Below, piece after piece: positions 8,993-58,078 of a stretch of 64,000 nucleotides of DNA (position 1 is its first letter; each line of letters starts with the position of its first letter). The translations under genes and the position numbers were made by a program. The stretch is from an uncultured Alphaproteobacteria bacterium (GTDB lineage: Bacteria; Pseudomonadota; Alphaproteobacteria; Rhizobiales; Aestuariivirgaceae), in NCBI GenBank assembly GCA_963763635.1, contig CAVXPO010000014.1:4123-68122 (forward strand), given 5' to 3'. The notes beneath the pieces were generated by a model. It had not been told where the DNA came from. It did not search any database and saw only the letters and a program-made list of their open reading frames with translations.

Positions 8993-10050
8993 GACAGGCC
9001 TCCCGGCAGGGTTGGCACTTGCAACGCCTTGAATCCATAATGCCGGAGCCAGCGCAAATCCGCTTCAAAGAAGGCGCGCAGGTCGGGGATGCCGTATTTG
9101 AGCATGGCGAGGCGGTCCAGCCCCATGCCGAAGGCGTAGCCCTGATGCTTGTCGGGATCAAGGCCGCCCGCCTTGATCACATTGGGATGCACCATGCCGC
9201 TACCCAGAATTTCCAGCCATGACGAGCCTTGGCCAATTTTCACCTGGCCGCCTTCCCATGAGCAGTTGATGTCGACTTCCAGGGAAGGCTCGGTGAAGGG
9301 GAAATGCGAAGCGCGGAACCGCATTTTCACGTCATCCACTTCAAAGAAGCTCTTGCAGAATTCCGCCAGGATCCATTTGAGGTGCCCCATGTGGGTCGTC
9401 TCATCAATGACAAGGCCCTCGATCTGGTTGAACATCGGCGTGTGCGTCATGTCGCTGTCGCAGCGGAAGGTGCGACCCGGTGCGATGATGCGGATGGGCG
9501 GTTTCGACGACAGCATGGTGCGGATTTGCACTGGTGACGTATGCGTGCGCAAAACCATGCGGCTGCCGTCGGGCTTCTCGTTGAAATAGAACGTGTCGTG
9601 CTCCTGCCGCGCCGGATGCTCCGGCGGAATATTGAGCGCCGTGAAATTGTGAAAATCATCTTCGATGTGCGGGCCTTCGGCCACGGCAAATCCGAGATCG
9701 CCAAAAATCTGCACCACTTCTTCCCACACCTGGGAAACCGGATGCACGGTGCCGCGCGGCTCGGCCCGCGTGGGCAAGGTCACATCAATTTTTTCAGACG
9801 CCAAGCGCTGCTCAAGCTGGGCTTCCTGCAACACGGCTTTGCGCGCAGCGATGGCTTCCGTCACCGTGTCTTTCAAAACATTGAGGGCGGCACCCGCGTT
9901 CTTGCGTTCATCCGGCGCCATGGCGCCCAATGATTTCATCTGCTCGGAGATCGAACCCTTCTTGCCAAGCGTTGCAATGCGAATGGCTTCCAGCGCCGCC
10001 TCATCGGAAGCGCCTGCAATCTGGTTCAGGATGTCTTGTTCAAGACTCAT
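8989..10050 (-). CDS. pheS: Phenylalanine--tRNA ligase alpha subunit
   Basis: [29 protein letters not shown] and GMVHPNV motifs. Confidence 0.98.
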
Positions 10051-10142
10051 GGCGGAGGGGTCCTTAAAACGGATTGGCCGGACCTCTCAAGTGTTGCACA
10101 CTTAACGGCCCGGCCAAGGAATTCGAAACGTGAGCTATCGAC

Positions 10143-10496
10143 TTATTGAGCAGCCTTGGCCTTTTCAACAAGGGCGGCAAAGCCAGCGGCATCATGGATC
10201 GCGAGATCCGAGAGAACCTTGCGGTCCACCTCGATGCCGGCCTTGCTCAAGCCATAGATAAATCGGCCATAGGTCATGCCGAGTTCGCGGGTCGCAGCGT
10301 TGATGCGCTGGATCCACAGGGCGCGGAAATTGCGCTTCTTGGTGCGGCGATCACGGTAGGCATATTGGCCGGCCTTTTCCACCGCCTGAACGGCAACGCG
10401 GAAAACGTTTTTGCGACGGCTGAAATAGCCCTTCGCGGCCTTCATTACTTTTTTATGGGACTTGCGGGCTACAACGCCGCCTTTTGCACGTGACAT
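10143..10496 (-). CDS. rplT: 50S ribosomal protein L20
   Basis: [33 protein letters not shown]. Confidence 0.98.
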
Positions 10497-10508
10497 CGCG
10501 GGCTCTCC

Positions 10509-10709
10509 TTAACGGGCGTAGGGCATGTGGATTCTGACGAGCCCGGCATCACCGGGTGACAAAATCATGGTGCCGCGCTGGTTGCGGAGCTGCTTGTTGG
10601 TGCGCTTGATCATGCCGTGTTGCTTTCCAGCTCCGGCGGCACGAATCTTGCCGGAAGCGGTCATTTTGAAGCGCTTCTTGGCTGAGGATTTCGTTTTCAT
10701 CTTGGGCAT
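10509..10709 (-). CDS. rpmI: 50S ribosomal protein L35
   Basis: [21 protein letters not shown]. Confidence 0.98.
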
Positions 10710-10819
10710 TTGGCTTAAGTCCTTTCAAAGCAACAGGAAGCCGCCATGGCATGCCCTTTACAGGCCAGGCGGCTTTGAGATGAGGTGTAAAGCAGAAATT
10801 TGGCGGAGGATGCAACAGG

Positions 10820-12139
10820 TTAGGGCCCTATCAGCAAAGTGACCTGTAATCCCCCCAGGTCTGACCGGCCGTAGCTCAATTCCAGCTCGTAAAGCTCGGC
10901 AATATCCTCAACGATGGCAAGTCCCAGGCCGAAACCCCGATCTTTTTCGTCCAGGCGGCGGCCGCGCTTTCGAATGGCTTGCAATTCGTCGTCGGGAACG
11001 CCTGGCCCATCGTCCTCGATGACAATGCTATTTGCCAAATACCCGATGCGCACCTCGGATTTGGCGTGTTTGCGTGCGTTATCAAGCAGGTTGCCGAGCA
11101 ATTCGAGCAGATCATTGCGCTCCAATGGCACCGTGACGTCGCGCGGCACATTATTGATAAGCAAAAGTTCGGTTCCCTTGGGCAAGCGACGCAATGTTGC
11201 AAATACGGCGTTGACTGTTTCCGCCAGCGGTGTTTTGTCATGCCCCCGGCCGGTTGCCAGTCGCGCCCGCACCAGCCCACGCTCGACATGCAGCCGCATG
11301 TTTTCAACCTGCTCGATGATTTCGCTGCTCTGCTTGTCAAGATGCTTCTTGCCTACGTCGCGCGCGATGGCTGAAAGGATTGTGAGGGGCGTCATCAATC
11401 CATGGGCCAGATCTCCGGCGCGGTGGCGCGCGCGCTCCAACGATTTGTCGCGCAGGTCCAGAACCTCGTTGAACTCTGAAACCAAGGGTTCAACTTCTGT
11501 CGGAAAATTCCCCTCAAGCCGGTTAGCGTGGCTTTGGCCAAGCAGTGCCAATTGGCGCCGCAACGCTTGCAGCGGGCGAAGCCCAATTGCAACCTGCAAC
11601 CACGCCGCCGCAGTGAGAGCAAGCCCGATCAACGAGAGGTACAGCACCAGCTGATTGCGGAAATATGCAATGGGCGACGTAATTTCCTCGTCGTGAGTGC
11701 TGACGATAAGATGCAGGTTAATGTTTTCATTATTATGCTTGATGATTATGCTGCGTTCGGTAGAAACCAGGACTTCATTTTCCGGCCCCAGGTTGGCGCT
11801 GATCGTTGCGGGGTCAGCGTCCCAGAGCGAGCGCGACCGCAACAGGTTGGCCGAGGTTGACGTTCTTGGCCCCAATTGGTCAATGCGCCAGTACTTGCCG
11901 CTAAAGGGCTGGTCAAAACGCGGATCTGCCAAATCGCGAACGATAACGACCTCGCCGGTTTTTGAAATTTCTATCGCACCCAGCAATTGCAGGAGATCGT
12001 TTTCCAACTCCTGCATGACACGGTTGCGTACCTGTTGTTCATATAAGGCAGTGAGTGCGACGCCCGCGAATATCAGCGCAGCGGCGATGGCGATTGCGGC
12101 GGCAATCAGCAATCGCAAACGCAGCGAGCCAGCCATCAT
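10820..12139 (-). CDS. Sensor histidine kinase (QseC/FeuQ-like)
   Basis: Two TM segments, HAMP region, H-box DLAHGLMTPL, N-box GNLLDNARK and G boxes (DDGPG, GFGLGLAI). Confidence 0.92.
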   Translation of the reverse strand: MMAGSLRLRLLIAAAIAIAAALIFAGVALTALYEQQVRNRVMQELENDLLQLLGAIEISKTGEVVIVRDLADPRFDQPFSGKYWRIDQLGPRTSTSANLLRSRSLWDADPATISANLGPENEVLVSTERSIIIKHNNENINLHLIVSTHDEEITSPIAYFRNQLVLYLSLIGLALTAAAWLQVAIGLRPLQALRRQLALLGQSHANRLEGNFPTEVEPLVSEFNEVLDLRDKSLERARHRAGDLAHGLMTPLTILSAIARDVGKKHLDKQSSEIIEQVENMRLHVERGLVRARLATGRGHDKTPLAETVNAVFATLRRLPKGTELLLINNVPRDVTVPLERNDLLELLGNLLDNARKHAKSEVRIGYLANSIVIEDDGPGVPDDELQAIRKRGRRLDEKDRGFGLGLAIVEDIAELYELELSYGRSDLGGLQVTLLIGP

Positions 12140-47353: not shown

Positions 47354-48544
47354 CTACTCCGACCTTCTCAACACCGCCTGCAACACGTCCCTGACGCCGA
47401 TCGCACCTGCAAAGGTGTTGTCGTCGTTGAACAGGGCCACAGGTGCCGTGTCCGCCTTGTGCATGGCGAGCATCACGGTTTTGAGCGATGTTCCAGGCGT
47501 TGCCCAGAACACCGGGTGATCGCCCTTGCCCAACGCCTTGTCAGCATCAGCGCAGGAAACCCAGGTGGCAACCTGGCCATTGCGCTCAACGGCTGCAACT
47601 TTTCCAGCCTTGTCCAGTTTGAATTTTGTCGTCCGGCGGCGGTCAAGCCATGTCCAGCCCCGCCCAGCGGATTCCAATTCATGCTTGGCCCGCATCACAT
47701 TCCAGGCGGTAAGCACACTCAACGGATTCACATTCGCAATGAATTCGCGCACATAGTCGTTGGCAGGGCGTAGCACGATATCTTCCGGCCGCCCCGTTTG
47801 CACAATGTGGCCGCCTTCCATGATGGAAATGTGATTGCCGATTTTCAGCGCTTCTTCGAGATCATGGCTCACGAAGATGATGGTTTTCTTCAATGTCTTT
47901 TGCAGTTGCAAAAGCTCATCTTGCAGCTTGGTGCGGATAAGCGGGTCAAGCGCCGAGAAAGGCTCATCCATCAACAGGATGGGCGCTTCCGTGGCAAAGG
48001 CCCGCGCCAACCCCACGCGCTGTTGCATGCCGCCTGAAAGTTCATGCACATATTTTCCAGCCCACTGGTCGAGCCCCACCAGCTTCAACTGCTTGTCGAC
48101 TTTAACTTTACGCTCCGCTTCCGGCATGCCGGCAAGCTCGAGCCCGAAGCCTACATTTTCCGCCACCGTGCGCCACGGCAGCAAAGCGAATTGCTGAAAC
48201 ACCATGGCAACCTGGCCTTGGCGCACATGGCGCAGCGTGGCTTCATCGCAGGTGACGACATCAACCATCTTGGCGCCATCGCGCACCAGCACATTTCCGC
48301 GTGATACCTGGTTGAGGCCGTTCACGGCGCGCAGCAGCGTGGATTTTCCCGAACCCGAAAGACCCATGAGAACGCTGATTTCGCCTTCCTTGACAATGAG
48401 GCTGGCCCCGGCTGAACCCAGCACCGCGCCGGTTTTTTCAAGAATTTCCGAGCGGCTCTTGCCCGCGTCGAGCATGGCAAGCGCCTCGCGGATGTCCTTG
48501 CCGAACAGGATGTCGACATTCTTGAATTCAACAGCAGTGCTCAT
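47354..48544 (-). CDS. choV: Choline ABC transporter ATP-binding protein
   Basis: GLSGSGKST, LSGGMQQRVGLARA and MDEPFSALDP. Confidence 0.88.
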   Translation of the reverse strand: MSTAVEFKNVDILFGKDIREALAMLDAGKSRSEILEKTGAVLGSAGASLIVKEGEISVLMGLSGSGKSTLLRAVNGLNQVSRGNVLVRDGAKMVDVVTCDEATLRHVRQGQVAMVFQQFALLPWRTVAENVGFGLELAGMPEAERKVKVDKQLKLVGLDQWAGKYVHELSGGMQQRVGLARAFATEAPILLMDEPFSALDPLIRTKLQDELLQLQKTLKKTIIFVSHDLEEALKIGNHISIMEGGHIVQTGRPEDIVLRPANDYVREFIANVNPLSVLTAWNVMRAKHELESAGRGWTWLDRRRTTKFKLDKAGKVAAVERNGQVATWVSCADADKALGKGDHPVFWATPGTSLKTVMLAMHKADTAPVALFNDDNTFAGAIGVRDVLQAVLRRSE

Positions 48545-49398
48545 TTCTTTGCCCCCGTGCGCACCGCAAGCACCCGGTCAAGGATGATTGCCAGGATGAC
48601 AATCGCCAGACCGGCTTCAATGCCCAAGGGAATGTTGCGGTTGTTGAGCGCGCGGTTCACCGGATTGCCCAGCGACGGCGCGCCGATCAGCGTGGCAATT
48701 ACAACCATGGAAAGCGACAGCATGATGCATTGCGTGAGGCCCGCCATGATGGTGGGCAATGCCGCTGGCAATTCCACCTTCCACAAAAGCTGGCGCTTGG
48801 TGGCGCCAAAAGCCTCGCCCGCTTCCAGCATGGGCTTGGGGATGGAGGTAAGCCCAAGATAGGTCATGCGCACCGGTGCCGGCATAGCAAAAATGACGGT
48901 TACGATGAGGGCAGGAGCGGCACCCAAGCCGAACAGGATCAGGATCGGAATGAGATAGACGAAGGTCGGCATGGTCTGCATGAGATCGAGAATGGGCTGC
49001 ATGGTTTGCCATACGCGCGGCTTATGCGCTGCCCAAATGCCCAGCGGCACGCCAATCACCATGGAAGCCGAGGTGGCCGCGATGACGATCACCAGCGTCT
49101 GCACCGTCTCCTTCCACAGCCCCTGATTGATGATGAACAGGAAGCCCGCGAACACAACAAGTGTGAGGATTTTTGATTTCTGGATGCTGTAGCTGATGCC
49201 GGCGAGCGCAAGTGCCAGCAACACGGGCGGGCACAGCAACAGCAGATAGGTCGATCCCTCGATCACCCATTCAATGCCGTTTGAAAGCCCGTCAAAAAAC
49301 CAGTCAAAATAGGTGATGATGAAATCAATGACGGCCTTGCCCCATTGGCCAACTGGAATTTTCCAGGCTGCAATGAACTTCGAAATGGGATCGATCAT
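48541..49398 (-). CDS. choW: Choline ABC transporter permease
   Basis: PILDLMQTMPTFVYLIP, EAGEAFGAT and IMLSLSMVV. Confidence 0.88.
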   Translation of the reverse strand: MIDPISKFIAAWKIPVGQWGKAVIDFIITYFDWFFDGLSNGIEWVIEGSTYLLLLCPPVLLALALAGISYSIQKSKILTLVVFAGFLFIINQGLWKETVQTLVIVIAATSASMVIGVPLGIWAAHKPRVWQTMQPILDLMQTMPTFVYLIPILILFGLGAAPALIVTVIFAMPAPVRMTYLGLTSIPKPMLEAGEAFGATKRQLLWKVELPAALPTIMAGLTQCIMLSLSMVVIATLIGAPSLGNPVNRALNNRNIPLGIEAGLAIVILAIILDRVLAVRTGAKK

Positions 49399-49478
49399 GT
49401 TGCGCCCCGTCCCTCATTTTTTATTATCGTCCGGCGCAGCGTTGCTGCCGCGCCGGCGTAGAAATGTTTTAGCCGCTC

Positions 49479-50423
49479 TTACTGGATGGCAGCAGAAACC
49501 GCAGCCATCGCGTCGCCGCCGTCCATGGTGGTAACGCCATCAAGCCAGGACTTGATCGAATCGGGATTGGCCTTGATCCAATCCTTGGCCACAACCTTTG
49601 GATCCGCGCCATCCTTCAGGACGGGCGCCATCATGGCGCCTTCCATGGCGAGGTTGAATTTCAGGTTGCTTACGAGCTTGCCCGCATTGGGGCATTCCGC
49701 CAGGTAGCCGGCGCGTACGTTGGTGTGAACCGTTGCGCCGCCAAAGCCATACTCGCTGACGCCATCGAGATAATGGATTTTCATGTCGCCCATGATGGGA
49801 TGTGGCGTCCAGCCGAGGAACAGGATCCATTCATTGTTCTTCATGGCCTTCTCGGCTTCGGTCAGCATGCCCGCTTCCGAGCTTTCAACCAGTTCAAATC
49901 CTGCGAGATTGTTCTTTGCATCGGCAATCATCGTTTGAATGATGCGGTTGCCGTCATTGCCGGATTCAATGCCATAGAACTTGCCGTTGAATTTGTCCTT
50001 GTTGGCGGCGAGATCCGCAATGCTTTTGACGCCTGCATCAGCCACATATTGCGGAACCACAACGCCGTAGCCCGCACCTTCAAGGTTTGGCGGCAGCTGC
50101 TCAACTGACTTGTCATCAAAATAAGGCTTAACGTCCGCCGTCATGCTGGGCATCCAGTTGCCAAGGAATACGTCAACATCCTTGTTCTTCAGCGAAGCAT
50201 AGGTGACAGGAACCGAAAGTGTTTTCACTTCCGAAGTGTAGCCCAAGGCGTCAAATAGGTTGGCGGCAATGCCGGTGATCACCTGGATGTCGGTCCAGCC
50301 CACGTCGGCAAAACGCACCGCCTTGCAGCTTGCGGCGTCCGCCGCCGAAGCTGATGTGGCCGAGGCAAACAGGCCAACGCCTACCGTTGCAGCGGCCAAA
50401 AATTTGGTCACGATTGAAGTCAT
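49479..50423 (-). CDS. choX: Choline ABC transporter substrate-binding protein
   Basis: VRFADVGWTDI, DVFLGNWMP, YGIESGNDGN and FLGWTPHP. Confidence 0.9.
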   Translation of the reverse strand: MTSIVTKFLAAATVGVGLFASATSASAADAASCKAVRFADVGWTDIQVITGIAANLFDALGYTSEVKTLSVPVTYASLKNKDVDVFLGNWMPSMTADVKPYFDDKSVEQLPPNLEGAGYGVVVPQYVADAGVKSIADLAANKDKFNGKFYGIESGNDGNRIIQTMIADAKNNLAGFELVESSEAGMLTEAEKAMKNNEWILFLGWTPHPIMGDMKIHYLDGVSEYGFGGATVHTNVRAGYLAECPNAGKLVSNLKFNLAMEGAMMAPVLKDGADPKVVAKDWIKANPDSIKSWLDGVTTMDGGDAMAAVSAAIQ

Positions 50424-51596: not shown

Positions 51597-51602
51597 GCAA
51601 GA

Positions 51603-51728
51603 CCCTCATCCGCCCGTTGGCCACTTTCTCCCATTCTGCGAACGGGCGAAGGCCATCATCCAATTATCGCCTTCGCCCGTGCTCGGGTTGCCCGAGTATG
51701 GTGAAGGTGGCCGAAGGCCGGATGAGGG
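51603..51728. repeat. REP/REPIN-like inverted pair, family A
   Basis: CCCTCATCCGCCCGTTGGCCACTTTCTCCC..GGGCGAAGGC followed by its imperfect reverse complement ending GAAGGTGGCCGAAGGCCGGATGAGGG, which is shared with 2819-2876. Confidence 0.8.
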
Positions 51729-52229
51729 ACCCTTCTGTTAACATCCCCAGCCTTTCCCACTGCTCGACAGTCCTAAAAAGAATATTTTTTACAGAGATAG
51801 GCAGAAGTGAGTTAAGTGCGGTGCCACTGCAATTCCAGAATGTTGACTTCCATGCGAACGACCGAAAACTTTAACAACTTAAACAGTGAGACAGGCCAGG
51901 TAATCGTCATTGTGGCTGTGCTGATTACGTTGGTTATATTTGTGCAACCAATTCGCAGGATAGCAGATGAATTGAGGTTTTATCGCACGAGCAATTGGGA
52001 TCATTGGCTCGACAGTCAGAATGAGTGATGGATGCAGGACTTTTTTGTCCAGCGTTTTCCTCATTGGCCCATTGGAAGGGTAAAATTTTTCGCTGAATCT
52101 CTGTTTCTGTGATCACAGCTAGCAGTAATCATCATACTGCTTGTTGCAGCCTTTGCTTGACATCAAAAGAAGAGAAAGTGCGCTGCTCTTTACGCAATAC
52201 ACGAACGTGATGATTGAAGACCTCACCTC

Positions 52230-53113
52230 TTAACCCCACAACCTCGCCGCGCCGCGTACGCCGCTCTTTTCGCCGTGTTTGGCGCGCATCACTTTCACTT
52301 CAGCAGCGCCCGAAAAACTGTAGCGCGTGAAATAAGCGGCGGCATTTCTTCAACCAGTTCCGGCAATTCATTCAGCCCGCCGCCAATTACAAAAACATCG
52401 GGATCAACCACACAGGCGATATTCGCCGCCACGCGCGCGAAGCGGTCTTGTAATCGATGTAGCGAGGCCCGCGCACCCGCATCGCCGCTGCGTGCGCGCG
52501 TGACAATTTCCTTGCCCGAAATATCTTCACCCGTTGTTTTCAAATGATCGCGCTGCAGTCCTGTTCCCGATACATATTGTTCGGCGCAGCCCGATTTGCC
52601 ACAGAAGCACGGCAGCAAGGGCCATTCGCTTTCTTGCGGCCAGGGCAGCGCGGTATGGCCAAATTCAGCGGCCTCGCCATTGGCGCCGCTGATCAGCTTG
52701 CCATTGATCACCAAGCCGCCGCCCAAGGCCGTTCCCACCGTAAAGAACGCGACAATGGCAAAGCCTTGCCCCGCGCCGTCAATCGCCTCGGACAATGCAA
52801 AGCAATTTGCATCATTCTCCATTTTTACGGGGCGGCCAATCGCGGCTTCCAGATCTTTTTGAAACGGCTTGCCATTGCAGAACGTAATATTTGCATTGCG
52901 CCACAAACCGGTTTTTCGCGAAGCCGAACCTGGCGAACCAATGCCAACAGTGCCATCTCCGGCCTGCATCACCAGCGCATAGATGGCCGCAATGACCTCA
53001 TCATAGGATTTTGGCGTGGCAACGCGCTTCTCGAACGTGATGTCGCCTGAGGGCGAAAATGAAACAGCATCAATCTTGGTGCCGCCGAGATCAATGCCGA
53101 TGCGGTTTGTCAT
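52230..53113 (-). CDS. ROK-family sugar kinase (fructokinase Mak-like) with a frameshift at about 52321-52328
   Basis: GIDLGGTK, ENDANCFALSEA, EFGH and CFCGKSGC.E. The C-terminus YSFSGAAEVKVMRAKHGEKSGVRGAARLWG* is in another frame. Confidence 0.9.
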
Positions 53114-53451
53114 GTCCGGTTGTAAACATCATCGTAACGGATGATGTCATCCTCACCAAGATAATCACCAAACTGGACTTCAATAATCTCGACAACATCC
53201 GTGTGGTTGTTTTCCAGCCGGTGCCTGTCGCCTTGCGGAATATCGATGGATTGCGCCCGCGTGAAGTCTTTCACCGTTTCACCCACCGTCACCGTCGCAA
53301 TGCCGGATACGACAGTCCAGTGCTCGCCCCGGTGCTTGTGGCTTTGAAGGGAAAGGCGGCCACCGGGATTAACCGCGATGCGCTTTACCTTGAAGCCTTT
53401 GCCTTCATCCAGGACATAAAATGCGCCCCAGGGCCGTATCTCACTATACAT
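53110..53451 (-). CDS. Cupin, mannose-6-phosphate isomerase type II C-terminal-like
   Basis: RPWG, RLSLQSHKHRGEHWTVV, HRLEN and EVQFGDYLGEDDIIR. Confidence 0.9.
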   Translation of the reverse strand: MYSEIRPWGAFYVLDEGKGFKVKRIAVNPGGRLSLQSHKHRGEHWTVVSGIATVTVGETVKDFTRAQSIDIPQGDRHRLENNHTDVVEIIEVQFGDYLGEDDIIRYDDVYNRT

Positions 53452-53973
53452 GTGCGTTTTCCTCCCAGAGAGCCGCAGTAAATTATCACCTGATCTTCTA
53501 CAGGCGTTCCCAGCATTTGCCCATGGGGACACGTTCGCTGTTGAATCACGACTATGCAGATATGCCAATCAGCTATTTTATGACGTAAGTCCTCACATAT
53601 TTTTCAGCGTCACAATTAAGCCATATTTTATGCCAAATTTTTCCAATAAAAATAATAACTTAGTGATTTGATACCTCGCCCTGGAAGACCATTTGGAATT
53701 GGGGCCTTGTCAATGCAGTGCTTTTCCGAATGTTGAAACATTGAACTTGTTGATCTTACGGCGTTCTTTTTCTGCGAAATGTGAATCAATTCCAGATTTG
53801 GTTGGTCCGTTCCCCGACGACAGGTTCATGCTGATCAGTTCGGTCTTGAATAGGGGTAAAGTCGAACCAGTAAAGCGTTTAAGGTGATTTCGTGTAACAT
53901 GATCGGCATCATATGATCCTATTATTATCAGGAGGAAACATCGTAAGCCCAAAATTGCGTTGCTCTGACCGTA

Positions 53974-55557
53974 ATGATTGCAACTGGGTTGCTCTTTGCC
54001 GAAATGACTCCAGCGGGCGCGCAGGGCATGATTTCTGCCCCTTCAGCGGAAGGTGACATCGCCGAAATTGAACTTGAGGGCCTCGGAAAAACTGATGCGC
54101 AAGTAATATCTACTATTCAACGCCTGCTCCGCCGGCTTGGCTATCTCAAGAATGAAAACATGACCCGCAAATTGGACGCGGCGACGACCTCGGCACTCAT
54201 CAATCATCTGCAGACTGTGAAAATTTCCACCAAGGGTTTAACTGGCGACACGATTTTGCTATCGCTGTTCTCCTCAGTTTGGATTAAGGAGGGATGGGCG
54301 ACGGGCAGTGTCAATGGTCAGGACCTGGTGGTGGACAAACCGGATGTTCTCTCTGCCCAGGATGCGCTCAAGAAACTCGGTTATGCGCCTGGTCCCGTTG
54401 ACGGCGTATTTGGGCCAGCAACGCTCTCTGCAATCGAGATATTTCAGGAAGATAACGGAATGAAGATCACGGGCCTTCTGACCCGTAACATATTGCAGAA
54501 CCTTACAAGGGCCGTGAAGTTCGTCGGCCAGACCCCCGCAAGTGTCGTTCGCGTTTTGAATTGGCCGGATTACATCAACCCCGAGGTGCTTGAAAATTTT
54601 GAGAAGGAAACAAAAATCCGGGTCCTGCATGATGTTTTTGATAACTCGGCTGAGACAAAGGAACTGCTCCAGCAAGGCTCCGCGCAGTACGATGTGATGG
54701 TACAAACAGGAGATCAGTTGCGCCAAATTATTGAAACCGCTAACGCCGTCGAGCCGCTCGACCCTGCCAGACTGCCTAATGCCCAATATCTCGATCCTGC
54801 GGCTCTCAACTACACTGGGGATCTCGATCCCGGCAACGCGCATTCGGTACCTTATTTGTGGGGTACAGTTGGAATTGGCGTGAACAAGGAAAAGCTGGCG
54901 AAGATAGCGCCAAATGTGAAGCTTGATAGCTTGTCCCTGATACTTGATCCGGCGATCGCTGCCGAAGTGTCGAAATGTGGCATTGCGATTGTCGATGAGC
55001 CGAACGACATGATCCCGGCATTAGTCGCTTACGTTGGCGGCGACATCCGCAATATTGGCATTACCGATCTGGAAACGGTGTGGGAGGCTCTTTCAGCAGT
55101 CTCAAGCTATGTCAAAATAGTATCTGTGGAGAGCTATATCGATAGCTTCGCTGAAGGAAAGTATTGTGTCGTCCTGGGTTATTCGGGCGATATTTTTCTT
55201 GCACGCGACACGGCGGCGAAAAATAAGACGGGTACAATTGTTTATAGTGTTCCCAAGGAAGGCAGCCTGCTCTGGTTTGACTTACTCGTTATTCCGGGCG
55301 CAGCGAAGAACAAGGAAGCTGCTTACAAGTTTCTCAACTACCTGATGAAACCTGAAGTGGCTGCAGCCAACACGAACTTCATCCAGTATGCCAATCCCAT
55401 TTCGGCTTCGGCGCCATTCATCGACAAGGAGCTGTTAAACGATCCGGCACTGTATCCTCCGAAAAGCGTATTGAAGAGGCTGGCCGTCCAGGCTCCTTCC
55501 GGTATGATCGCTGAAAACCAAATCAAACGTATTTGGGCTAAACTTACCAAGGAATAG
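53974..55557 (+). CDS. PotD/PotF-like polyamine-binding protein with N-terminal peptidoglycan-binding-like domains
   Basis: QRLLRRLGY.. and QDALKKLGYAPGPVDGVFGPAT..FQEDNGMKITG, then LNWPDYI..VPYLWGTVG..YSGD..PKEG..WFD. Confidence 0.85.
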   Translation: MIATGLLFAEMTPAGAQGMISAPSAEGDIAEIELEGLGKTDAQVISTIQRLLRRLGYLKNENMTRKLDAATTSALINHLQTVKISTKGLTGDTILLSLFSSVWIKEGWATGSVNGQDLVVDKPDVLSAQDALKKLGYAPGPVDGVFGPATLSAIEIFQEDNGMKITGLLTRNILQNLTRAVKFVGQTPASVVRVLNWPDYINPEVLENFEKETKIRVLHDVFDNSAETKELLQQGSAQYDVMVQTGDQLRQIIETANAVEPLDPARLPNAQYLDPAALNYTGDLDPGNAHSVPYLWGTVGIGVNKEKLAKIAPNVKLDSLSLILDPAIAAEVSKCGIAIVDEPNDMIPALVAYVGGDIRNIGITDLETVWEALSAVSSYVKIVSVESYIDSFAEGKYCVVLGYSGDIFLARDTAAKNKTGTIVYSVPKEGSLLWFDLLVIPGAAKNKEAAYKFLNYLMKPEVAAANTNFIQYANPISASAPFIDKELLNDPALYPPKSVLKRLAVQAPSGMIAENQIKRIWAKLTKE

Positions 55558-55626
55558 GGTCTGACGCGATGGCCCGGCCCGGGTCAAGGCGGCAATTCAA
55601 ACGGGGCCGCTCCCTCTTTGCCCCGA

Positions 55627-55655
55627 TTGACGCCAGCCCCGCACCTCGATATAAG
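55627..55655 (+). promoter_or_regulatory. Sigma70 promoter for rpsT
   Basis: TTGACG-N17-TATAAG. Confidence 0.65.
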
Positions 55656-55758
55656 CCCGCTATCTCATAGCACGAGAAATCACATGGCCATTGGCGAGTT
55701 GCCGATAGCTTCTTGATATTCCCGTGCAATTGAACAAAATTTAGATCAGGAAAAATAA

Positions 55759-56025
55759 ATGGCCAATACCAAATCTGCAAAAAAGGCAACACGCGTTTCG
55801 GCGCGCCGCGCTGCGGTGAACAAGAACCGCACCAGCCGCGTGCGCAGCTCGCTCCGCAAGGTTGAAGAGGCAATCGGCGCTGGCGATAAGGAAGCCGCCG
55901 TCATTGCAATGAAGTCGGCAGAGCCAGAGCTGATGCGTGGTGCCCAGAAAGGCATCCTTCATAAGAACACGGCGTCACGCAAGATTTCACGCCTCACCAG
56001 CCGCATCCGGGCCCTCTTCGCCTGA
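55759..56025 (+). CDS. rpsT: 30S ribosomal protein S20
   Basis: [25 protein letters not shown]. Confidence 0.98.
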
Positions 56026-56047
56026 TAACTATCCACATAAATGGTTC

Positions 56048-56085
56048 AAAACGCGCCGGGGAAACTTCCGGCGCGTTTTTGTTTG
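56048..56085 (+). terminator. Rho-independent terminator after rpsT
   Basis: AAAACGCGCCGG..CCGGCGCGTTTTTGTTT. Confidence 0.85.
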
Positions 56086-56638
56086 TCCGATGACGGACCG
56101 TTTTTGTCAAATTTAATCAATGTATTTCAACGTGTTGGCGCCATTGCTTGATACATGGGTGAAAATTGCAGCCGTTCGCCCTTCTGCAGCCTCGCAATTT
56201 TGATGTGCCTGCCTCGCTGCGGGCGATTGCGCGGCACTGAAATGGGCCGGATTCACAAAGCCGCATCAGGGAGTTAGCAAAATATCCAAAAAACCGGTCC
56301 AAACCACTTAGTTTACCGGCGCGCTCCGTGTACGGAATAATGACGGATTCATCTTGCAGTGTGACGCCGGCCTTTTGTAGGTTCCCCCCAACGCCGCAAA
56401 CCTGAGATCATGGAGCGGCAAAAAAACCGGCGTTATGGCAGTAACGTTAAGTGTGAGGCGGCATTTCTGATGTGGGGGCATAACAGAAGTTTAGGGGCGG
56501 GATTTTATCCCAAAGTGTAGGTAGCAAGTGTTGGGCGTGAGCAAGTTGTTCTTTGGCAGGAACCACTGCGAAAAACTGTGTCTTAAAACGACAGGTGTTG
56601 ACATGAAACCAATGCAACAAAAGGGTGCGGAAACGAAG

Positions 56639-58078
56639 ATGACGAATATTGCATTAAAAATGGATCTCACACAGACAGTGGATCTCACGCAAAAATGGCA
56701 GCGTGTTTCTCAAAGGCTGCGTGCCGAACTCGGCGATGACCTGTTTACCAGCTGGTTTGGCCGCATGAATGCGGAAGACCACAGCAATCTTCGCCTTATT
56801 GTTTCCGTGCCGACCCGTTTTCTCAAGAGCTGGATTGAAAACCACTATGTTGCCAAGCTGCAAAAAATTGCGGAAACCGAGTTTGGCCAGCTTGATTCTG
56901 TCCTGGTGCGGGTGCGCGGGCAGGTAGCGGCGCCGCGTGCTGTTGAAACAGTTGAAAGCGCGCGCCCCAGTTATGAAGAGACGCGGGCAAATATCCCTGC
57001 AAATTCGAATTTCCTGGTCCAGGGCGAGCGCAACACGCCGCTTGATTCATCCCAGACCTTCGACAGTTTCGTGGTTGGAACTTCCAATCAGTTGGCTCAC
57101 GCAGCCGCCTGCCGGGTAACGGACGCCATTCACGGCGCGCCTGTTACCTTTAATCCGCTGTTTGTTCATTCAGCGGCGGGCCTTGGCAAAACCCATTTGC
57201 TCAATGCCATGGCGCACCGTATCCGTGAAAGGCACCCGGAGCGCAAGGTGCTGTTCCTCACCGCCGAGCGTTTCATGTACAGTTTCATCCAGGCGCTGCG
57301 CCAGCGTGACACCATTTCTTTCAAGGACCAGTTCCAGTCGGTTGACGTGCTGCTGATTGATGACTTCCAGTTCCTGCAGGGCAAAACCATGCAGCAGGAA
57401 TTCTGCCACACCTTCAATTCCTTGGTCGACTCGAGGAGGCAGGTGATTGTGGCGGCAGACGTGCCGCCCTCTCAGCTTGACACCATCGACCAGCGCATGC
57501 GTTCGCGTCTCATGGGCGGCCTTGTCATCGACATTGAGCTGCCTGATCTCGAACTCCGCCGCAAAATCGTGCTCAGCCGCTACATCGCCATGAATATGCG
57601 TGATCATTCCATCATGATCCCCGACGATGTGCTGGAATTTGTCGCTAACCGCATTACCGGCGGCGGCCGCGAATTGGAAGGCGCCCTCAACCGTGTTGTC
57701 GCCTACCAGCAATTCAACAAGGCGCCGATCACGCTGGACCTGGCTTCCATGGTGTTGCGCGACATGTCGGCCAACCCGGACCAGTGCCGCATCAAGATTG
57801 ACGACATCCTGAAAATCGTCGGCCGCCATTTCAACGTGGCGCGCACCGATTTGCTGTCGCCGCGCCGCGCCCGCTCCATCGTGGTGCCGCGCCAGGTTGG
57901 CATGTATCTCGCCAAGAAAATGACCTCGCGGTCGCTGCCGGAAATCGGCCGGCGTTTTGGCGGGCGTGACCATTCAACCGTGCTCCACGCCGTGCGCAAG
58001 ATTGACGACCAGATCAAGACCGACGACCGCCTGGCCAAGGAAGTGGCCCTGTTGATAAGGTTGGTCGAGCAGCAATAA
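56639..58078 (+). CDS. dnaA: Chromosomal replication initiator DnaA
   Basis: [37 protein letters not shown] and [12 protein letters not shown]. An alternative start lies at 56603. Confidence 0.98.

Follow-up and report, generated by a model that had tools for sequence, protein, structure and literature searches.

We analysed a 64,000-nucleotide stretch (the window) of contig CAVXPO010000014.1, from an uncultured alphaproteobacterium of the family Aestuariivirgaceae, in which the gene at 53974-55557 encodes two putative peptidoglycan-binding units, one PG_binding_1-like and one a canonical PG_binding_1, joined to a polyamine-binding domain of the PotF/SpuE type. The family defined by this fusion is conserved, lineage-restricted, uncharacterized and not mobile. 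At most of the loci that we compared, the fused gene directly follows a gene for a membrane-anchored protein with the fold of formylglycine-generating enzyme (FGE). We propose that the fused proteins are wall-tethered polyamine receptors that dock to this membrane-anchored partner, and are not importer subunits, a reading that we hold to be evenly poised between right and wrong. The copy in the window has no partner gene beside it and bears a lesion at its 5′ end, and the proposal is weighed below with both facts in mind.

A fusion family with a conserved pocket

The open reading frame (ORF) and its parts are as follows, with residue numbers counted from ATG 53974.

53974-55557, plus strand: fused ORF (P0001), from ATG 53974 to the stop codon at 55555-55557, 527 codons plus stop.
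53974-54027, plus strand: residual signal peptide, residues 1-18, from comparison with relatives; low-confidence in the structural model.
54097-54291, plus strand: wall-binding unit 1, residues 42-106, a divergent PG_binding_1-like three-helix bundle (Pfam and model).
54337-54516, plus strand: wall-binding unit 2, residues 122-181, a canonical PG_binding_1 (Pfam and model).
54517-54540, plus strand: short linker, residues 182-189, that leads from the wall-binding units into the binding-protein domain (model and alignment).
54541-55554, plus strand: PotF/SpuE-type polyamine-binding domain, residues 190-527 (Pfam, NCBIfam, alignments and Foldseek).
55042-55086, plus strand: family-specific loop and helix start, residues 357-371 (N-I-G-I-T-D-L-E), the predicted partner dock (complex model and motif).

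A Pfam search with the whole protein matched SBP_bac_8 to residues 206-492 (87 bits) and PG_binding_1 to two stretches that together score 66.7 bits, the strongest part being residues 123-175. Searched alone, unit 2 (residues 110-192) scored 56.5 bits against a cut-off of 23, and unit 1 (residues 30-118) scored 17.6 bits (E = 0.004), matching profile positions 5-34 only; the family alignment has invariant residues in unit 1. An AlphaFold2 model made from 27 family sequences (predicted local distance difference test (pLDDT) 84.2; predicted template modelling score (pTM) 0.80) places two three-helix bundles after a disordered stretch at residues 1-33, with helices at 42-54, 69-81 and 91-106 in unit 1 and at 122-134, 148-160 and 171-181 in unit 2, followed from residue 190 by a two-lobed binding-protein fold. 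Foldseek aligned this fold to Escherichia coli PotF and to Pseudomonas aeruginosa SpuE/SpuD with target template modelling (TM) scores of 0.85-0.92, and a phmmer comparison with SpuE gave an E value of 8e-72. The score against the NCBIfam model for PotF (NF007962) was 242 bits, compared with an equivalog cut-off of 636, so that the domain is PotF-like but not a PotF orthologue. A sequence-only reading of the same DNA had described two PG_binding_1-like units, the second of them canonical, ahead of a complete polyamine-binding fold, and this structural description was right on every point. BLASTP detected no similarity between the two units, and we therefore rejected an internal duplication as the source of both.

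Searched against 5.8 billion proteins, the sequence gave 584 hits, as clusters at 90% identity. The 120 matches listed are 509-555 residues long and 63-99% identical over 97-100% of the query, and every one of them contains both the PG_binding_1 and the binding-protein Pfam families. More distant fused members are a protein on a ‘Nordella’ contig (45% identity) and WP_124088509.1 of Pseudogemmobacter humi (40%), and 75 proteins of the family form a cluster in the ESM Atlas. The fusion that the earlier description called unusual is real, but it is no one-off, as more than 580 homologue clusters share it. The family is resident in databases under generic annotation only: the most specific names among the listed matches are ‘extracellular solute-binding protein [Aestuariivirga sp.]’ and ‘putrescine transport system substrate-binding protein’. 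By its own standard of an architecture that is common and annotated, the earlier reading is thereby refuted by half. In the papers searched we found no description of the fused architecture or of its pairing with a partner, and only generic notes on caspase-FGE fusions.

Most family members come from Aestuariivirga-like Hyphomicrobiales. Within the Aestuariivirgaceae, the fused form is present in 15 of the 101 genomes sampled (this one included), which represent 6 of 20 genera, and carrying genomes often have two or three paralogues. Elsewhere in the order it occurs in 2 of about 389 genomes. None of 400 genomes sampled from the rest of the class has it at E <= 1e-85, a threshold that would miss more distant forms. 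Plasmid records match the binding-protein part only (153 records), and none covers at least 80% of the query.

For the pocket, we matched residues to PotF numbering by motif and in part by the known PotF sequence. The roles of the PotF residues (PMC8666671) were carried over through a gap-free alignment with SpuD/SpuE and through the family alignment. In PotF these residues are W37, W244 and F276, together with D39, D247, D278 and E185 (PMC8666671). The aromatic box of the window protein, W197/Y403/W434, aligns with W37/W244/F276; the proximal pocket contains P198, D199 and D406, and the distal pocket T245, D247, E342, D345 and D436. Among the key carboxylates (D199, D406, D436 and D345, the last in place of PotF E185), D199, D345 and D436 vary little or not at all across the family, and the same is true of the three residues of the aromatic box. 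C335 and C398 occupy the PotF disulfide positions and are invariant in the family, which fits a periplasmic protein. W434 corresponds to the F276W-type state that shifts the preference of PotF towards spermidine (PMC8666671) and, together with the extra distal acids E342 and D247, suggests that the ligand is a spermidine-like triamine rather than putrescine. Judged by these residues, the polyamine pocket is intact in the window copy, which makes a wall-tethered receptor or sensor the natural reading. The sequence-only reading had offered a wall-tethered ligand sink or sensor; the receptor or sensor half fits the pocket, and nothing specific speaks for a passive sink.

A membrane-anchored partner and a predicted complex

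We compared 26 distinct loci, that of the window gene and 25 others. In 16 of them, a gene with an FGE-sulfatase domain lies immediately upstream of the fused gene on the same strand, and in the other 10 the fused gene is solo; three genomes of the same genus contribute 7 of the 16, which are all the fused genes that they have. On long annotated contigs, the gap from partner to fused gene is −4 to +40 nt. A PF03781 search of five genomes placed all FGE-family genes but two directly upstream of a fused gene. This coupling, which the sequence-only reading had missed, is the chief clue from gene context. The layout of the partner is conserved: behind an Arg-rich cytoplasmic tail come a single membrane helix, a spacer of about 120-265 residues in which Pro, Ala, Glu and Val abound, and a C-terminal FGE-fold domain. 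This domain is closest to PvdO (5hha; E = 2e-23), and at the position of the catalytic Cys pair of FGE it has a gap, with no Cys in that segment. At the likely N terminus of the Arg-rich tail, the partners in L013, L022, L028-L032 and L036 share an L-P-M/L-A-P-R motif, which in at least one public gene call (P0272) lies upstream of the called start.

The partner of the ‘Nordella’ relative (L024:6074-7966) is a secreted protein with a different front end, in which a signal peptide, a caspase-like Peptidase_C14 domain and a coiled coil replace the anchor. The caspase-FGE architecture is known as uncharacterized only (PMC3501461), and this locus ties it, in bacteria, to a putative wall-anchored polyamine receptor.

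Some solo genes have neighbours of another kind. At four loci of an old solo clade (L039, L042, L043 and L044), a conserved protein of 145-170 residues is encoded directly downstream on the same strand, with a gap of −43 to +93 nt. It matches no Pfam family and occurs in the old solo clade only, where it may take the place of the missing FGE-like partner. Neither this protein nor a GGDEF-EAL gene, the candidates for a common alternative neighbour of solo copies, is encoded beside the window gene, and we rejected such a neighbour.

For one natural pair, given as two alignments, we modelled the mature receptor (P0030:46-555) together with the C-terminal domain (250 residues) of the partner encoded upstream of it. 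The interaction prediction score from aligned errors (ipSAE) was 0.65 (median of 0.65, 0.50 and 0.69), against 0.00 for the best of three controls. That mark is reached by 58 of 80 solved complexes and by 2 of 110 mismatched pairs, a calibration that is only rough with custom alignments. The runs share at least 59% of their contacts, and the partner pLDDT is at least 84. We know of no solved complex of this kind, so that a pass by model memory seems unlikely.

On the receptor side, the contacts fall on chain residues 340-354 and 494-495, equivalent to residues 357-371 and 511-512 of the window protein when chain 1 is numbered from the cut chain rather than from the parent protein. We took the cut-chain numbering because the motif pattern fits it, and the alternative segment shows no such pattern. 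The contacted loop and helix start show strong conservation among family members that does not extend to PotF, SpuD or SpuE, and in the model the equivalent of window I363 lies between two invariant tryptophans of the partner.

Within this loop, 15 of the 16 partnered proteins have the motif G-[IVL]-[TAS]-D-[LI]-E, the exception being a frameshifted paralogue from this genome (C26), which has S for G. The window protein has G-I-T-D-L-E at residues 362-367 and, like the solo copy at L035, keeps the motif without a partner alongside. The motif is altered in C8, the third copy in this genome, and lost in the Pseudogemmobacter protein (L025), and in the old solo clade (five loci, three families) it is replaced by K-x-E-D-L-Q-like sequences. 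Two genomes of that clade, 99% and 91% complete, contain no partner-type gene at E <= 1e-10. The model supports binding of the FGE/PvdO-like domain to the receptor domain, and the correlation between motif and partner, which does not depend on the model, is supportive, not conclusive.

We hypothesize that the exported protein is held on the cell wall by its two PG_binding_1-type three-helix units and that its C-terminal PotF/SpuE-type receptor binds a polyamine, probably the spermidine-like triamine. The inner-membrane partner would span to the wall layer via its long Pro-rich spacer, and its C-terminal domain would clasp the family-specific receptor loop. Both proteins together would form a membrane-to-wall link bearing a polyamine-binding site. 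That about 8 residues are all that links the anchor to the receptor speaks against a wall-bound protein shuttling to a permease. In a more specific form of this proposal, which we regard as speculative and rather unlikely, the pair would be a ligand-gated tether or sensor that spans the envelope, with its assembly or geometry set by the polyamine and with a periplasmic caspase-like protease recruited in some relatives. Such a pair, with neither a transporter nor a classical signalling domain, would be a previously undescribed connector, a suggestion that we put forward just as tentatively.

The window copy and competing readings

We placed the window protein in a maximum-likelihood tree of 26 rows, with canonical PotF as a long outgroup and a midpoint drawing. 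It falls inside a 12-row clade (support 100/99) that consists of copies from this genus, bar one metagenome contig, and the old solo clade is separate (support 96/100). As nearly all other members of the 12-row clade are partnered, the solo state of the window copy is best read as derived, by duplication of the receptor gene alone or by loss of the partner. P0004, with 71% identity its nearest non-identical relative, is likewise solo and lies in a different context again. About 3.8 kb downstream of P0004, on the opposite strand, lies a gene for an ornithine/diaminopimelate/arginine (Orn/DAP/Arg) decarboxylase of the type used in polyamine synthesis (L048:5804-7010), a single case.

The genome (3.36 Mb, 31 contigs) contains three fused copies, which are the window gene, C8 and C26. 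C8 is intact, with 535 residues, 59% identity to the window protein and a good signal peptide. By tblastn, there is no partner remnant upstream of C8 (best E 0.54) and no FGE remnant upstream of the window copy (best E 0.73). C26 is split into ORFs of 195 and 364 residues by an extra T (+1) inside wall-binding unit 2, either as a real pseudogene or through an assembly error. Upstream of it stands the only partner-type gene of the genome, intact and 560 residues long.

L013:7761-9443 and 9485-11102: C26 partner gene and frameshifted fused paralogue, with the extra T around L013 10011.

Because its predicted docking loop is kept, the window copy could use the C26 partner in trans; its truncated signal peptide makes such use uncertain.

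This truncation, which the sequence-only reading had not noticed, is evident from the closest relatives, which are 538 residues long, 98-99% identical in protein sequence and encoded on three independent metagenome contigs with the same neighbour genes. Their GTG start (M/V-K-N-Q-N...) lies 5 nt past an AGGAGG and 11 codons before the window ATG.

53930-53935, plus strand: Shine-Dalgarno-like AGGAGG, spaced for the ancestral start at 53941 and not for ATG 53974.
53941-53973, plus strand: remnant of the ancestral 5′ end, from alignment with the three contigs that encode the 538-residue relatives.

In the window this part is 2 nt shorter and has substitutions, with the result that the GTG is lost, a TAA is in frame at 53944-53946 and the first usable start is the ATG that matches codon 12 of the relatives. 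Inspection of the sequence before ATG 53974 found no ribosome-binding motif. The signal peptide has thereby lost its Lys-bearing n-region and half of its hydrophobic core. What is left is an 18-residue N terminus in which about 8 residues are hydrophobic, a basic n-region is absent and the invariant A-Q-G site is kept; the family's Sec signal peptide with a basic n-region is therefore not found in the window copy. Loss of the start codon and of half of the signal peptide makes expression and export of this copy doubtful. Residues 16-24 (54019-54045), with A-Q-G-M-I-S-A-P around the predicted signal-peptidase site, are invariant or nearly so across homologues, even in proteins that are about 40% identical, which is unusually strong conservation for a mature N terminus that is disordered in the model.

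The window gene may accordingly be a non-functional or decaying duplicate, poorly translated or not exported and on its way to becoming a pseudogene, a possibility that we take seriously while thinking that it is probably not the case. The vanished GTG, the in-frame TAA and an AGGAGG positioned for the lost start, with nothing comparable ahead of the present ATG, all favour decay, as do the frameshift in C26 and the missing partner gene. Set against this, the ORF is open over 527 codons that remain 98-99% identical to intact relatives, and the residual N terminus still has its hydrophobic stretch and A-Q-G site. Elsewhere in the gene, codon differences are 4 synonymous to 3 non-synonymous relative to contig L001 and 8 to 8 relative to L002, a ratio like the 10 to 9 between two intact relatives, which argues against long relaxation. 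Any inactivation is thus recent, or the lesion is an assembly error, as the lesions of this genome could be.

Several points weigh against wall-tethered receptors with a docked partner. The Pfam score of unit 1 is under the threshold, and much of the family has Ala or Gly in place of D406, the equivalent of PotF D247, so that not all members need bind the same ligand. The complex score expresses model confidence, and it was obtained for P0030, which is 66% identical to the window protein, and not for the window protein itself; the numbering of its receptor chain is ambiguous, as described above. Because the old solo clade is monophyletic, few independent events lie behind the correlation between motif and partner. 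The window gene itself has divergent cupin and ROK genes upstream in place of a partner, and its signal peptide is crippled. If the protein stays in the cytoplasm, the proposed role does not apply to this copy. The 5′ lesion could also be explained by an assembly error.

The place of the fused proteins relative to polyamine import can be judged from gene neighbourhoods. No permease or ATPase gene adjoins any of the three fused copies, and no Pot-type permease gene is found near any of the 26 family loci. A canonical potFGHI-type operon is encoded on another contig (C30), with a 388-residue binding protein that is 35% identical to the receptor part of the window protein, a TOBE-domain ATPase and two permeases. 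The earlier designation as an orphan solute-binding protein is upheld by these observations. It is improbable, in our view, that the fused protein serves PotGHI as an accessory binding protein that captures polyamines near the wall and hands them over. The intact pocket and the presence of PotGHI in the genome are compatible with such a role, and N-terminal tethers are generally known to work with binding-protein function in Gram-positive lipoproteins. However, PotGHI already has the binding protein encoded next to it, fused genes were beside Pot permease genes in none of the 26 loci, and the short linker to the wall anchor would hold the receptor off the inner membrane. The conserved coupling to a different partner, with a co-varying surface loop, also speaks against hand-over to PotGHI.

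The pair might instead consist of an enzyme and its substrate, with the PvdO/FGE-like protein modifying the receptor or its ligand. The FGE superfamily includes enzymes (FGE and EgtB), PvdO is needed for a periplasmic oxidation step, and the predicted contact involves the partner segment that, by FGE homology, bears the catalytic cysteines in true FGE. Yet the partner is missing this Cys pair and has no DinB-type metal domain, and the loop that it is predicted to contact has no C/S-x-P-x-R motif. Structural proteins with an FGE fold also exist (PorK/GldK, which are among the matches of the partner domain), and we consider catalysis decidedly improbable.

Very unlikely, too, is an NspS-like sensor, in which the orphan receptor would report periplasmic polyamines to a GGDEF-EAL protein. 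There is precedent in NspS-MbaA of Vibrio cholerae and Sinorhizobium meliloti (PMC8079147, PMC9993111), and genes of this type are found at two solo loci.

L043:1373-3481 and L035:1-2100, same strand as the fused gene: PAS-GGDEF-EAL genes upstream of solo fused genes.

L035 also has an EAL response regulator gene on the downstream side. GGDEF-EAL genes abound in the class, however, so that adjacency at two loci may be chance. The two loci are distant from the window gene, which has no such gene in the roughly 6 kb before it and 8 kb after it, and most family loci are likewise without one nearby. In the L043 protein, PAS domains fill the N terminus from about residue 35, which would leave no room for an MbaA-like periplasmic domain. 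The last alternative, two genes joined by a sequencing or assembly error, is negligible and we ruled it out: nothing in its favour was found, although the draft assembly has other small lesions, and the same colinear layout recurs in more than 100 listed full-length homologues, in both paralogues and across the domain junction (about 54517-54540) of three independent metagenome contigs with 96-98.5% DNA identity.

The window gene is preceded by two divergent genes, one cupin/ManC-like and one of the ROK family, and is followed by rpsT, dnaA, dnaN, recF and gyrB. The sequence-only reading had noted that no permease or ATPase gene is adjacent, which is correct; the only nearby ATP-binding cassette (ABC) system (47354-50423, minus strand) is of the glycine-betaine type with its own OpuAC binding protein. 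Rfam has no match in the flanks (52500-57000) at E <= 0.1, and a promoter and terminator scan found nothing above shuffled expectation near the gene, bar a strong hairpin after rpsT. The rpsT gene (88 residues) lies in the region 55759-56098, with a terminator-like hairpin of 14 pairs at 56048-56079, just before dnaA; a 109-residue ORF at 55544-55873 (minus strand) overlaps rpsT, belongs to no family and is probably spurious. On the near-identical contig L001, a hicA/hicB toxin-antitoxin pair (116-705) lies past the ROK gene. The region compared with it in the window (51600-52295) does not align there, as the alignment of L001 with the window begins at window 52230, so that the two strains differ in this insertion.

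The gene is AT-richer than the genome, as had been remarked, but modestly so: its G+C content is 0.509, compared with 0.552 for the genome, which ranks it at the 6.5th percentile among 1.6-kb segments. Values are similarly low in the paralogues (0.514-0.516) and in canonical potF (0.522), so that composition is no sign of foreign origin, which we rejected.

Comparison with known systems

In textbooks, periplasmic binding proteins shuttle ligands to ABC importers, and a few have taken on a role as sensors. The family described here adds a third arrangement, in which a receptor predicted to be fixed to the wall is coupled to a membrane-anchored FGE-fold protein. If the complex is real, it would provide a first functional handle on the non-catalytic FGE/PvdO-like domains, which are widespread, including those of caspase-FGE fusions, and a new route by which diderm bacteria read or use periplasmic polyamines, in a simple two-protein system. 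As far as the searched literature shows, the gene pair and the predicted complex are undescribed. For annotation, the label ‘putrescine transporter subunit’ is unsuited to the window gene, the 5′ end of which needs checking.

The window protein shares the two-lobed fold of PotF and SpuD/SpuE at 33-38% identity in Foldseek alignments, and with it the aromatic box, the key carboxylates and the cysteines at the disulfide positions; SpuE, like the window protein, has W at the position of PotF F276. In contrast to PotF, it has about 190 extra N-terminal residues with two wall-binding units and its own conserved loop (357-371), and it is not encoded with a permease or ATPase. Within the pocket, PotF S38 is replaced by P, A182 by E, E185 by D and S87 by D. 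The ESM Atlas holds a second cluster (421 residues, 53 members) with PG_binding_1 and SBP_bac_1/SBP_bac_8. Its proteins are shorter than those of the family described here and have one wall-binding unit at most (with a lower feature score, 0.90), and they show that fusions of a wall anchor and a binding protein are not unique to this family.

NspS-MbaA is similar in that a polyamine-type binding protein works with a membrane partner that is not a transporter (PMC8079147, PMC9993111). However, NspS is PotD-like and free in the periplasm, with a GGDEF-EAL partner, whereas the family described here is PotF-like and has putative wall anchors, and its usual partner, unlike MbaA, has only a short Arg-rich tail and no cytoplasmic signalling domain. 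Like the partner, PvdO and PorK/GldK have an FGE fold without the catalytic Cys pair; unlike PvdO, the partner is anchored by one membrane helix, has a long Pro-rich spacer and is paired with a binding protein, a pairing of which the papers searched gave no example. Systems of the TolA-Pal and TonB type rely on a protein anchored in the inner membrane, whose long spacer crosses the periplasm and whose C-terminal domain touches a wall-associated protein. The likeness is one of logic only, as the receptor and partner have no sequence or fold kinship to these proteins. No ExbBD or TolQR motor genes lie beside the pair, and its putative wall component is a ligand-binding receptor.

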